A stretch of 64,000 bases of DNA from an uncultured Bacillota bacterium (lineage in GTDB: Bacteria; Bacillota; DTU025; MWDF01): NCBI GenBank assembly GCA_963823655.1, contig CAWGMK010000010.1:160001-224000 (forward strand). Direction: 5' to 3'. This document shows, piece after piece, positions 3,187-24,793 of the stretch; position 1 is the stretch's first letter, and every line of letters begins with the position of its first letter. The notes below the pieces were generated by a model, which was not told the DNA's origin, made no database searches, and saw only the letters and a program-made list of their open reading frames with translations. A program made the position numbers and the translations under genes.

Positions 3187-3276
3187 ATAACTTGATCTGG
3201 ATCGAAAGATAATGCATGGATGAAGAGCCAAATATTGCGGAAGCGTCGCAGTAAGGGCTATAATATTTCCTGCCGA

Positions 3277-3351
3277 GCGGATGTAGCCCAGTGGTAGGGC
3301 AATGGCTTCCCAAGCCATGTGTCGCGGGTTCGAATCCCGTCATCCGCTCCA
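3277..3351 (+). tRNA. tRNA-Gly (CCC)
   Basis: Acceptor GCGGATG/CATCCGC, anticodon arm ATGGC-TTCCCAA-GCCAT, TTCGAAT, CCA; TTGCGG-18-TATAAT promoter upstream (3235-3264). Confidence 0.97.
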
Positions 3352-20746: not shown

Positions 20747-21394
20747 TTGAAAGCTCTTAGAATAGCGATAATCGCAGCAGTGATCATATTTGCGGTATTC
20801 CAGTCAGGTTGCCGGACGACATGGTCTTTGGATTTTACAGAGGCTATTGAGGAGGACCTTGCCGATTGGGGCGGGTATTCCAGCTGGGCACTTGACGACC
20901 CTCCCGGATCGGGCCTACAGGTCGAAGAGTATTACGTGCTGAGCCCGATAGGGTTCTCTGCCGATTTCACGCTGACTCTGGATATGTGGATGGATATTGA
21001 CGATTCCAACAGCGCAGATTTTAGGATTTGGATCGGCGATGATGAGAGCGACTATCCGGAGCATTACATTACCTGCGAGTTCGAGCAGGCAGGAGATGAG
21101 ATTAACGAGGAAGTCCTGATCCATGAGGACGGTGTGGGATTGGATTTTCGCGACATCGATACTTTGGAGCCCATACCGGGCATTAAGAATGGCACCAATA
21201 CATTCAAGCTGATAAGAAGAGGGGACCATATCAGGATAACCATGAACGGCGCTGAACTTGCGGACTTTGATGCCATCTACTTTAATCCTCCGGCATGTTT
21301 TGTCGGCTTTGTAACCGATGATACATCTAGCCAGGATGTCTATTACAGGAAGATCAGCGTCAGCTATGCGGGGGATCCGGTCCCGCTTCCTTAA
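20747..21394 (+). CDS. Acidic hypothetical lipoprotein, probable ConA/laminin-G-like beta-sandwich
   Basis: Lipobox-like QSGC; beta-rich; similar to 57085-57897. Confidence 0.65.
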   Translation: MKALRIAIIAAVIIFAVFQSGCRTTWSLDFTEAIEEDLADWGGYSSWALDDPPGSGLQVEEYYVLSPIGFSADFTLTLDMWMDIDDSNSADFRIWIGDDESDYPEHYITCEFEQAGDEINEEVLIHEDGVGLDFRDIDTLEPIPGIKNGTNTFKLIRRGDHIRITMNGAELADFDAIYFNPPACFVGFVTDDTSSQDVYYRKISVSYAGDPVPLP

Positions 21395-21499
21395 TCGGCG
21401 CGGCTGACTGCGAAGAAGTCACCGGCGGTATATAATAGCCCAAAGGCTCCATTAGTGCAGAGCCCGTTGATACTTGAGATTCTCGACAGTTATGGGGTG

Positions 21500-22624
21500 A
21501 TGCATCATTCGTCTAAGGAAGTAAGATATTCTTTCTGCTCAGTCTAATATTAGCCGTATTCCTGGCCAGTGCGACCACCTCGGCAGGCGCAATGACGCTG
21601 TCTCCGGCATGGGTTAAGGACGGCTTCGATGGTGCGTCCATGGCAACTTCGGGCGAGGGTGTCATCATTGTGGCTGTCGGAGATAGGGTCTATAAGATAG
21701 GCAAGGACGGCTCGACTGTCTGGGAGAGGAAATCCCCAGGGCCGGTGGCGGTTGTTGAAGGGGACGGATACGGGGGCGCATGGGCGGCGACGGGGAAGAC
21801 TCTGATACGAATCTCAACAGACGGCGCAATTAAGTGGACGTTCACCTATGACGATGTGATTTTAAACCTTGAAGCTTTGCCGGATGGCAGGATGCTTGCT
21901 GGCACCGAGCGGGGCGTGATCCTCGTGGATAGTGCAGGAAAGCTGGTATGGCTGTACGACCCTGCGACCGGGTGCGACACTTGAATACCTATCATTCTTG
22001 GGCCGGTTCGGTCCATTGAATACTTAGGCGGCGACGACATTCTTGTGCTCGGGCAGGTGTATCGGGATATTCAGCGACATGGAAGCGCTCGATTACCTGA
22101 CTGTCGTCAGCCTTGAATATGGCGACACATCCAACGACTGCAACTATATATGGCCATTCAACATTACTGCTGTGGCAATTGAGCACCGCAATTCGATCAT
22201 AGTCTCGGCTTACTATAGAAGGGTAGTCAAGTGGAACGGAATTAGCGAATTTGAAGTTGAATGGTCCAAGACGATGGATCTGCCGAAGTACTTAGCATAT
22301 GACAAGCTGACCGGCATAGTAATCATCGGGCAGGAGGGGAAGAGCATAACGGCAATAGCCACAAGGAATGGCGAAAGCGCGAGTTCTGCAGTGCTTCCTT
22401 TTGAGGTGCTTACAGAGCCTCTCAGCCTGGAAGGAAACGGGTTGCTGATAATTGGGGACGGAATTGCAGCGGTGCTTGACGGGAAGCTGGTCATTTCGGG
22501 CGAATACCGGGCTTCATGGATAGTGGACGGCGCAATTGCGTCATTTGACGGTAGCTCAATATTCGTGCTTTCTTCCGGCAAATTGGCTAGGTTCGGTGTT
22601 GTTGCGGTCCTGGGGCTGCCGTAG
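21500..22624 (+). CDS. Secreted PQQ/BamB-like beta-propeller; candidate selenoprotein (UGA 21982-21984)
   Basis: Signal peptide KIFFLLSLILAVFLASATTSAGA in frame upstream of 21592; blade motifs DGSTVWE, DGAIKWT, AGKLVWL; frame stays open after TGA; frameshift ~22065 into ORF 22043-22624; start approximate. Confidence 0.65.
21994..22021 (+). promoter_or_regulatory. Candidate bacterial SECIS hairpin
   Basis: ATTC-t-TGGGCCG-[GTT]-CGGTCCA-tt-GAAT; apical loop starts with GU about 21 nt after the in-frame UGA. Confidence 0.55.
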
Positions 22625-22771
22625 CATCGGACGGATGCCTCAGGAGCCTATTCTATTGGGGCCTTGCGTTTAACGGCGATAGCTGATTGTCGCATGCAAA
22701 GAGATGCTAGACAGTATTTGTACTTCGCATCGTTGTCATTCCTGTAAGAGCATACTTAGTCTGCCAACTGC

Positions 22772-24264
22772 TCAAACCTTGTCTTCATTGAAGGCATCAT
22801 CGGGCGTCACCTGATCCCTGACCCAGACAGAAACCTGGCCTCCGTTGCAGGGAAAGATGCCATTGCCATCTTTATCGATGGTGACTTTGTCGGTCCGGTT
22901 GCCCGTATAATCGGCATAAACAGCGCCTTGATTGATAGAGCCTACATTCATCTGTTTTTCGCCGCCGGCGCCGTTGCTCATGACAACAGCACAGCCATAG
23001 GGATGCACTCTCATCACCCATCCGGACCCAGCCGACGGAATTGTTGTGGTCGAAGTAGTCCACCTGTTTGCCATAGGCATGTAGATTCCGCAGATACAAC
23101 AGCTTATCAATCATCGCCTGCTGCCCGTCAAAGGGCTGTGGCGCCTTAATGCCATAATAGTCCCCGTAGAAGATCTTCGGATATCCGTCCTGGCGAAGCA
23201 GGATCAGCGCATAGGCCAGTGGTTTGAACCAGGCTTCAACCCAGGACTGGAGGGGCTGGTCAGGCTGGGAGTCATGGTTGTCGACAAAAGTCACGGCATA
23301 TTCCGGATGTTCCTTGACCAGAGATCCTTCAAAGATCTTGCTCATATCATAACGGTCGCCGGATTTGCTGGCCGTATGCATGTTGAAATGGAGTTTCACG
23401 TCGAAAAGGTCCATCTCGAAGTCGGTATTGTCAAGATAGTCATTGATCGCTTCTTTATCCTGATTCCAGTATTCACCTACGGCATAAAAGTCTGTCCGGT
23501 ATTCACCCCTGATCTTCCGAATTAGATCGCGTAAGAAGAAATCGTTGATATGCTTGACTGCATCAAAGCGGAAACCATCCACACCTGTCTCATTAACGAA
23601 CCAAAGCGCCCAATTGCGGACCTCTTTGACCACATCAGGATGTTTGTAGTCAATATCATTGAACATGAGATAGTCAAAATTGCCGTTTTCGTAGGTGACG
23701 CCACTTGACCAGCCCTTGTTGATGCCATCGATCATGTAGATAGCATCTTTGATTGTCTCTCGCATTGAAGTCGAGACCGGAGAAATGGATCCAGCTCCAT
23801 TTGAATGCGGAATACTGGTCGCCACGCCCGGGGAAAGTGAATTTTGTGTAAGCCTCGATCTCATAAGATTCGGAAATAGCCCGGGTTCGGTTTGAAGGGT
23901 CCATTTTCCTGGCCATGAAAGTTTCTTTTTCATCGCCATTGGCTTTATGGTTCAGGACGACATCGACATAGACATTGATCCCATGATCGTGAAGCACGCG
24001 GATGGCTTCCTGAAGCTCTTCCTTGGAGCCGTACTTGGTCCTGACCGATCCTTTCTGGTCGAACTCGCCTAGATCATAAAGATCATAAGTGCCATAGCCT
24101 GAATCAAAGGGAGAAGTAGCCTTAAAAACTGGCGGGATCCATACACTGGTGATGCCTAGCTCCTTCAGATGACCGGCATCATCTTTCAGCCGAATCCAGA
24201 GGTTATTCTGAAGATCCCCCATATACCATTCAAAATATTGAAACATGATTCCTTTTCGAGCCAT
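22772..24264 (-). CDS. Alpha-amylase GH13 (cytoplasmic type; 2 frameshifts)
   Basis: MFQYFEW, GYGTYDLYDLGEFDQKG, DVVLNHK, DGFRFDAVKH, VGEYW, FVDNHD. Confidence 0.92.
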
Positions 24265-24793
24265 AAAGCTTTCCTGCCTTTCAGTAATCACACCCATCAC
24301 CCAAAGTTGTTACACTTGCCATTCGAATAAGAATGCACTATGCGAATATTTCTTCGGCTTGGTCTGGGAGGTTTAACAGAATTTGCAGCCATGCCGAAGT
24401 TCAAAGGTGCTTTCTCTGTCACAAGGGCAGGTTCTACCTCAGAAAAGAGGCGCCTTTTTGGCGTCCACAAAGCCCGAACCCTTTCTAATGTTCGCTTCAA
24501 AGAGCGTTTCCCCATTGTTGAATTTAGTCCTCATAAACGACTGAAAATGCAGTGAATAAAATCGATTCCGGAGCTTTACACCGATATTGCTTTTGCGCCT
24601 ACTTAAGGCGCGATAATCTTTATGGTAGCGCCCGAAACAATCGCAGTTTTCGATCCTCTTGATGACAACGCCGCCTGCGACATCCGCAATCAGGATGCCT
24701 TCGAGACGGCAATTGGCGTGACCAGTTTTCGGACACCAAGTTGGCACACGCGGACAAACCCTACGTAATTCATCTTAGAGTCAACTGATATTC

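Follow-up and report, generated by a model that had tools for sequence, protein, structure and literature searches.

The window analysed here, a stretch of 64,000 nucleotides (nt) from an uncultured Bacillota bacterium, corresponds to G000:C10:160001-224000, where G000 denotes a 2.3-Mb genome in 13 contigs. Between positions 21500 and 22624 of its forward strand lies a gene for a putative exported β-propeller, which is interrupted by an in-frame TGA codon at 21982..21984 that we read as a candidate selenocysteine (Sec) codon. The N-terminal half of the propeller, approximately blades 1 to 3.5, is encoded at 21592..21981 (+) and runs through the Cys-Asp-Thr preceding the TGA; it shares 46–54% identity with orthologs in six genomes of the genus. 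A preliminary description of this locus had reported an open reading frame (ORF) at 21592-21984 ending ...WLYDPATG-C-D-T-TGA, continuation of the same frame past the TGA, and closure of both other frames soon afterwards. All three features were reproduced. The terminal codons are TGC (21973..21975 (+), the Cys of a CxxU motif), GAC, ACT and TGA, the two other frames are closed ~35–40 nt downstream, and the frame continues at 21985..22060 (+) as IPIILGPVRSIEYLGGDDILVLGQV, the same peptide being read in orthologs. Past the TGA this frame stays open for just 43 codons before a second TGA (22114-16) closes it. An extra base at 22061..22061 (+) shifts the frame in this assembly, and the C-terminal half of the propeller (approximately blades 4 to 8) follows in the +1 frame at 22062..22624 (+), within an ORF at 22043-22624 that stops with TAG at 22622-24. 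A C-half profile (A3) matches G000:C10:182037-182600 with an E value of 2.9e-60. Since ORF 22043-22624 is in the +1 frame, a protein of ~370 residues requires, in this assembly, a frame change near 22060 in addition to decoding of the UGA.

The 5' end of the gene (21500..21591 (+)) is likewise disrupted. An ATG at 21500 opens one frame, while a signal-peptide-like stretch, KIFFLLSLILAVFLASATTSAGA, is encoded in the main frame at 21523-21591. In-frame ATG, GTG and TTG codons are all absent from 21517-21591, the sole upstream ATG (21500) being in a different frame, and a frame disruption sits between this ATG and the signal-peptide stretch. The orthologs begin with an M-(R/K)-rich n-region followed by a hydrophobic stretch.

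Conservation of the TGA, together with homology on either side of it, was the first property that the preliminary description had proposed to examine. When the read-through N-terminal half (P0001) was searched against 41 related genomes, 28 match rows were obtained in eight of them, representing 27 loci (seven in G000, four each in G001 and G004, three each in G002, G003 and G006, two in G005 and one in G007). A TGA lies inside the match at 27/27 loci; the one row without it is the N-terminal fragment of a frameshifted G000 locus. Neither TAA nor TAG was found at the Sec column among the family members examined. The TGA occupies a single alignment column, as the U of CDTU, CATU, CSTU, CD[FY]U or CFTU (CxxU), or of EDCU or PNCU (CU), every motif then being followed by x5-G-P-[V/A]-[R/W]-[S/F/L]. 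In an alignment of 22 intact members (A1, 17–55% identical to the first sequence) the invariant columns include W152, C160, the Sec column 163, G169, P170 and V171, and C160, invariant in 22/22 sequences, corresponds to the TGC codon at 21973..21975. Besides blade-typical residues and the G-P-V stretch, the standout invariant positions are the Cys and the Sec, with the Cys located at −3 or −1 depending on the subgroup.

The distribution of the family is narrow. In a phylum-wide sample of 401 genomes, TGA was present in 17/17 full-length matches, and these were confined to G000, G001, G002 and G004 (genus g1) and G007 (genus g2). The remaining 12 rows, from 11 genomes, match generic propellers only in part and contain no internal stop. 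Within the class (21 genomes), the C-half profile matched G000 and all six other g1 genomes, and 0/14 others. TGA was also found in 5/5 metagenome loci from short-read assemblies; as their sequences are nearly the same as those of genes from this genus, they add independent assemblies rather than new lineages.

Downstream of the TGA, the preliminary description had identified a hairpin resembling a bacterial Sec insertion sequence (SECIS), ATTC-t-TGGGCCG-GTT-CGGTCCA-tt-GAAT at 21994..22021 (+). RNAfold reproduced this structure, with a core stem formed by 21999-22005 and 22009-22015 and an apical loop GUU at 22006-22008, 21 nt after the UGA. The lower ATTC/GAAT stem is peculiar to the window copy. 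The core recurs in the relatives: in an alignment of 26 loci (A2), gap-free from the motif onward, all 26 form a 6–7 bp stem with a (N)GUN(N) loop, starting 14 nt after the UGA. The loops are of the GUN type at 14 loci and of the NGUNN type at 12, and a 27th locus (L047) carries GCN instead of GUN. A consensus computed with RNAalifold on the 26 loci independently found the same stem as six base pairs (columns 27–32 with 38–43) enclosing a 5-nt loop.

Conservation of the hairpin, which had likewise been singled out for examination, is accompanied by covariation. In the 7-pair version, 93.4% of the cells are paired across the 26 loci as compared to 85.8 ± 1.6% in shuffled alignments (0/500 as high), and the covariation score is 0.329 versus 0.194 in the shuffles (0/500); as the aligned hairpin sequences are related and three stem pairs are invariant across all 26 loci, these counts are not to be read as probabilities. 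Sliding the partners by one column lowers pairing to 64–68%. The outer pair, 27–43, occurs as GC at 13 loci, AU at four, UA at four and GU at two, with three unpaired, and links the third base of one codon to the first base of another, both specifying variable residues. The innermost pair, 33–37, is GC at seven loci, UA at seven and GU at three, with nine unpaired. Codon usage lends support of its own. Ser at U+10 is encoded by TCC in 19/19 cases, whereas TCC makes up 17% of the Ser codons in the remainder of these 22 genes; Gly at U+6 is encoded by GGR in 22/22 (46% elsewhere in these genes), and Arg at U+9 by NGG, i.e. CGG or AGG, in 18/18 (63% elsewhere). The compensatory changes and codon choices exceed what protein conservation alone explains.

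The published model of bacterial SECIS elements specifies an apical loop of 3–9 nt, an upper stem of 4–16 bp and a distance of 16–37 nt between UGA and loop (PMC13188914, section 5, Fig. 2 legend), with a G at the first or second loop position, which frequently precedes a G or U, and a minimum free energy of at most −7.5 kcal/mol (PMC13188914). The hairpin agrees with this model. At the 26 loci GU is present in loops of 3 or 5 nt, the spacing in alignment columns is 20–21 nt, and the 27-nt segment has a minimum free energy between −8.0 and −12.9 kcal/mol in 26/26 cases. As an internal control, the selD gene of the same genome contains a similar small hairpin, GGGUCC-GGC-GGACCU, beginning 11 nt after its own UGA.

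The presence of a Sec machinery, on which the original proposal depended, was established for the genome itself. The genes for tRNA-Sec, selD, selA and selB are clustered on contig 6 of G000 at 98054-104116 (loci L001, L009, L012 and L020), all scoring above the respective cut-offs (tRNA-Sec 76.3 bits against a cut-off of 47, selD 372, selA 499 and selB 279.8), and selD carries one in-frame TGA. In G001, G002, G004, G006 and G007, selB is above cut-off and stop-free in open frames of 641–733 residues, the match covering the whole model in G001 and the first ~345 positions in the other four; tRNA-Sec scores 75.7–78.4 bits in these five genomes. A tRNA-like match within the window at 3275-3349 (+), G000:C10:163275-163349, reached 37.8 bits with the tRNA-Sec model, which is below the cut-off, and presumably represents an ordinary tRNA.

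With regard to the fold, the window's own two pieces gave no meaningful Pfam match, and intact relatives were needed: five of six members scored 29.1–48.1 bits with PQQ_2 (PF13360, cut-off 27.6 bits) and one scored 24.4. No NCBIfam model fits the family, the BamB equivalog TIGR03300 reaching at best 30.6 bits against a cut-off of 285.2. AlphaFold2, run with alignment A1 on the joined G005 ortholog rather than on the window copy, returned an all-β model with a mean predicted local distance difference test score (pLDDT) of 89.9 and a predicted template modelling score of 0.84. In Foldseek, the best PDB matches were BamB chains (E 2.6e-16, template modelling score (TM) 0.67–0.70) and Bacillus YxaL. 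As modelled, the joined ortholog is a single BamB-like propeller with a complete set of eight blades, in line with the expectation that the two halves would fold as one. In the model, Cys160 and Sec163 are placed between a strand at 150–154, which is followed by a short helix at 156–159, and a long strand at 166–178; the predicted site thus lies on the loop entering the first strand of blade 4, with a local pLDDT of 77–83.

The N-termini resemble Sec-type signal peptides when read by eye, with an M-R/K n-region, a hydrophobic stretch and an A-x-A site, and the structure model has a low-confidence helix at 9–23. No lipobox Cys was seen at +1 of the predicted cleavage site in these N-termini, likewise read by eye. 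The genome encodes a BamA-like protein (G000:C10:440935-442488) scoring 178.6 bits with TIGR03303, below the curated cut-off; this model matched only the seven diderm genomes among the controls. Judged from its sequence, the BamA-like gene suggests an outer membrane, though one public record labels a relative as Bacillota. Export to the periplasm is a reasonable reading of the signal-peptide-like N-termini in combination with the BamA-like gene. The preliminary description had proposed an exported propeller of ~370 residues. The fold is predicted to be complete for the joined ortholog. Decoding of the UGA alone does not make the window copy whole: the downstream ORF 22043-22624 is in another frame and the signal stretch has no in-frame start. 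Export is favoured by the N-termini, as read by eye, and the BamA-like gene.

Comparison across the family shows a conserved recoded UGA, a conserved hairpin, a co-occurring Sec machinery and a single-domain fold. On these grounds we consider it very probable, at roughly 0.88, that the gene belongs to a genuine, previously uncatalogued selenoprotein family and that the TGA at 21982-84 is a Sec codon. The gene product would be a protein of ~365 residues with an N-terminal signal peptide and an eight-bladed β-propeller of the BamB/PQQ_2 type. The UGA at 21982-84 would be decoded as Sec, with SelB in complex with Sec-tRNA(Sec) binding the compact hairpin 14 nt downstream of that codon, and this hairpin would be written into the codons of the conserved peptide G-P-V-(R/W)-(S/F/L). 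Sec and the invariant Cys, arranged as C-x-x-U here and as C-U in the sister subgroup, would be positioned on the loop into blade 4.

Several observations weigh against a Sec assignment and deserve attention. The case rests on sequence comparison and predicted structure, and the related loci stem from one genus and one neighbouring genus, which means that counts such as 27/27 are not independent. The stem codons encode a conserved peptide, and part of the hairpin conservation is therefore at the protein level; Rfam contained nothing matching 21900-22150 at E ≤ 10. Beyond the TGA, two frame disruptions affect the window copy in this assembly, and selB is split between two frames. One public protein, P0014, reads W at the Sec column, albeit as a protein record in which the codon is not visible. 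Most selenoprotein families have Cys homologs. A representative profile search had 430 hits at E ≤ 1e-30, the best 150 of which were considered, and word-indexed searches scored 8000 candidates each; among the split halves, generic propellers and P0014 found in these sets there was no Cys form, which removes the usual Sec/Cys support. Finally, no redox or metal partner was found in the gene neighbourhoods of eight paralog loci.

The frame disruptions lead to the question of whether the window copy is a decaying pseudogene, with true frameshifts at ~21520 and 22061, in a family that may itself be real. Besides the two disruptions, it speaks for such decay that five of the seven propeller copies in G000 are fragmented, including this one. 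The contigs of four public DNA runs were compared with 21400-22700, covering the region apart from 21400-21769 and most of 22377-22538; no RNA run was among those matching the stretch, and the best-matching DNA run shared only 0.16 of the sampled words. In one of the runs (X1), a first record is identical to the window over 21854-22004 and spans the TGA, so that the codon at 21982, for which a check against sequencing data had been suggested, is seen unchanged. A second record is identical over 22008-22177 with no other differences save one letter omitted at 22061, this being the single X1 contig that covers the position. Both contigs have a depth of ~2.5, and they come from a run whose independence from the source of the assembly is uncertain. 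Omission of base 22061 restores the frame, which then reads ...LGQVFGIFSDMEALDYL... as in the orthologs.

Unrelated genes are split as well. In addition to selB, an alpha-amylase-like gene, named by reading its translation, lies at 22872-24300 (−) as overlapping ORFs (22872-23939 and 23674-24300) in different frames. Such splitting fits scattered single-base indels in the assembly. The selB frames are unbroken in the relatives, and two G000 propeller copies, L039 and L044, are whole. The window copy in this assembly contains at least one single-base error besides the TGA question. We infer that its two further frame disruptions are assembly errors, the one at 22061 being backed by a short-read contig, and regard decay of the gene as unlikely.

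The public records bear on the question of whether the TGA is a true stop. In this alternative, the locus encodes two proteins, an N-half of 3.5 blades and a C-half of 4.5 blades, and the hairpin is a by-product of the G-P-V-R-S peptide or a translational coupling signal. Public gene calls indeed list the halves separately. A word-indexed search with profile A1 yielded three generic propellers and five C-halves (193–202 residues); of the C-halves only P0004 is named, as "hypothetical protein". The best 150 of the 430 proteins in the profile search are mostly giant multi-repeat proteins matching only profile positions ~27–146, and also include 11 C-halves (177–210 residues), six N-halves (149–152 residues) and the full-length P0014. 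A near-length search with the C-half profile A3 gave 21/21 matches of 184–206 residues, all C-halves; among longer proteins (369–2000 residues) the same profile found no family form, a null result of little weight.

The lack of a Cys form linking the halves and the partial coding constraint on the hairpin likewise speak for two proteins. Conversely, all six N-half records end exactly before the Sec column, in ...EDC, ...PNC or ...ECDT, and the C-half gene calls in the database begin at differing, spurious codons. The frame is continuous with unchanged spacing at 27 loci sharing only 17–55% identity, the residues directly following the TGA are conserved, and no start codon is maintained at that point. 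Moreover, the synonymous codon choices and the third-position covariation favour RNA pairing, and a single closed propeller is confidently predicted across the join. A pair of separate proteins thus appears very improbable. As a side observation, the giant proteins among the public records (P0011-P0159) reach 7935 residues and contain 6–22 tandem stretches that match only the N-terminal three blades of the family.

A similarly improbable alternative is selenium-free read-through, in which the UGA is translated as a standard amino acid (Trp, Cys or Gly). Near-cognate read-through of UGA exists in bacteria, and P0014 (342 residues, cluster member P0160) reads ...RPEDC-W-FPTLTGPVRS..., with W at the Sec column. 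The two contigs behind this protein measure 1839 and 1176 nt, and a scan of metagenomes did not recover the DNA encoding it. The W reflects either a TGA called under a genetic code table in which TGA encodes Trp, or a true TGG variant; a table-4 gene call on contigs this short is a plausible cause. A complete Sec system co-occurs with the family in the six genomes tested, the hairpin conforms to the model of SelB-type SECIS elements and is similar to the selD element of the same genome, and the adjacent invariant Cys is typical of Sec sites, all of which argues for Sec rather than for a standard residue. Genome-wide reassignment of TGA to sense was rejected, because 10 of the 22 intact family genes terminate in TGA (TAG 9, TAA 3), which makes TGA an ordinary stop in this code.

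The proposal that this is not a described selenoprotein family was compared with the recent catalogues. A 2026 review (PMC13188914) lists, by its own count, 119 prokaryotic selenoprotein families and subfamilies in its Table 1, and no propeller, PQQ_2 or BamB-like family is among them. Family names referring to propeller, pyrroloquinoline quinone (PQQ) or BamB are also absent from the texts, as distinct from the supplementary family lists, of PMC13188914, PMC12013277 (deep-Sep) and PMC13326102 (BSepDB), as well as from the available portions of the Haft 2022 preprint (10.1101/2022.07.06.499078) and a 2022 review (PMC9312934). Among the papers retrieved by full-text search, those combining selenoprotein or selenocysteine with propeller or PQQ all concerned eukaryotes. 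These results support the view that the family is new and uncatalogued, while its mechanism is the known bacterial Sec insertion.

Among known systems, CxxU selenoproteins with a SECIS in the coding region, such as GrdA, SelW-like and AhpD-like proteins (PMC13188914, Table 1), provide the closest parallel in decoding. They share the UGA with a Cys three residues upstream, the dependence on selA, selB, selC and selD, and a small stem-loop with an apical-loop G ~20 nt downstream of the UGA. Most members of those families are thioredoxin-like proteins or small redox proteins of the cytoplasm and have numerous Cys homologs, whereas the propeller family has an exported eight-bladed scaffold as predicted, 1–7 loci per genome and no Cys form found. 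The CU-motif selenoproteins SaoL, HgcA, MbdU and SaoC (PMC13188914, Table 1; available part of the Haft preprint, 10.1101/2022.07.06.499078) resemble the propeller subgroup with EDCU and PNCU in their vicinal Cys-Sec and in the truncation of database proteins at the CU site. As far as those sources describe them, they have unrelated folds and neighbourhoods tied to organometallic or metal handling, none of which was seen at the propeller loci.

BamB and YxaL are alike in fold (Foldseek TM 0.64–0.70, E down to 2.6e-16) and in the N-terminal export signal. The family falls below the TIGR03300 cut-off for BamB and differs from BamB in lacking a lipobox Cys. To our knowledge, neither BamB nor YxaL has Sec or CxxC at this loop. 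A recently predicted outer-membrane barrel selenoprotein is comparable as a β-rich protein of the cell envelope with a CxxU motif, but it is a barrel rather than a soluble propeller, and Cys homologs are reported for it.

As to function, we slightly favour a role of the Cys/Sec pair as a selenenylsulfide redox centre or nucleophile. Coordination of a soft metal or metalloid by the pair is the less likely possibility. The site may resemble the vicinal Cys-Cys found in PQQ alcohol dehydrogenases, or the GCUG motif in thioredoxin reductase. A comparison of 60 flanking ORFs with Pfam, the propeller halves and some further ORFs being omitted, revealed no recurring thioredoxin, DsbD/CcdA, cytochrome or metal-transport partner, and the neighbourhoods differ among paralogs. 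A model of pqqC found no match in G000 and none in 14 control genomes either, which renders this blank uninformative.

Directly upstream of the propeller gene, an ORF at 20747..21394 (+) encodes a lipoprotein-like protein of 215 residues, with a signal peptide ending ...SGC; the Pfam scan matched no family to this product. The same gene is found immediately upstream of the orthologous propeller genes in G005, G004 and G001. Other neighbours recur at individual loci: a DUF6305 protein near L093 (G001:C33), L098 (G004:C10) and L099 (G004:C49), a SurA-like/tetratricopeptide repeat protein near L093 and L099, an AstE/AspA-like protein near L093 and L098, and an uncharacterised gene of 353–394 codons directly downstream in L093 and L099.

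Searches for Sec/Cys pairs and for thioredoxin-like motifs underlie much of the selenoprotein catalogues. The former would overlook a family that lacks a Cys form and is built on a non-redox scaffold. Recognition of the family would correct the gene calls in this lineage, where the named records are at present "hypothetical" halves. It would mean as many as seven more selenoprotein genes for a genome of 2.3 Mb, and a broader set of folds in which Sec is known to be used. The hairpin would moreover offer a compact natural SECIS, with a 17-nt core overlapping a fixed peptide, for the study of SelB recognition.

The balance tips modestly towards this being the first β-propeller selenoprotein, an obligately Sec-dependent periplasmic protein with up to seven paralogs per genome in a small lineage of diderm anaerobes. 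If so, a SECIS would be fixed inside the conserved G-P-V-R-S peptide, such that RNA and protein constrain each other, and the persistence of Sec in every paralog lineage would indicate a chemistry beyond the reach of sulfur, e.g. that of a low-potential periplasmic reductase or a metalloid-binding site. These anaerobes are found in digesters, groundwater and sediments. That the family has expanded and has strictly retained Sec suggests that the propellers have an important function in their cell envelope.

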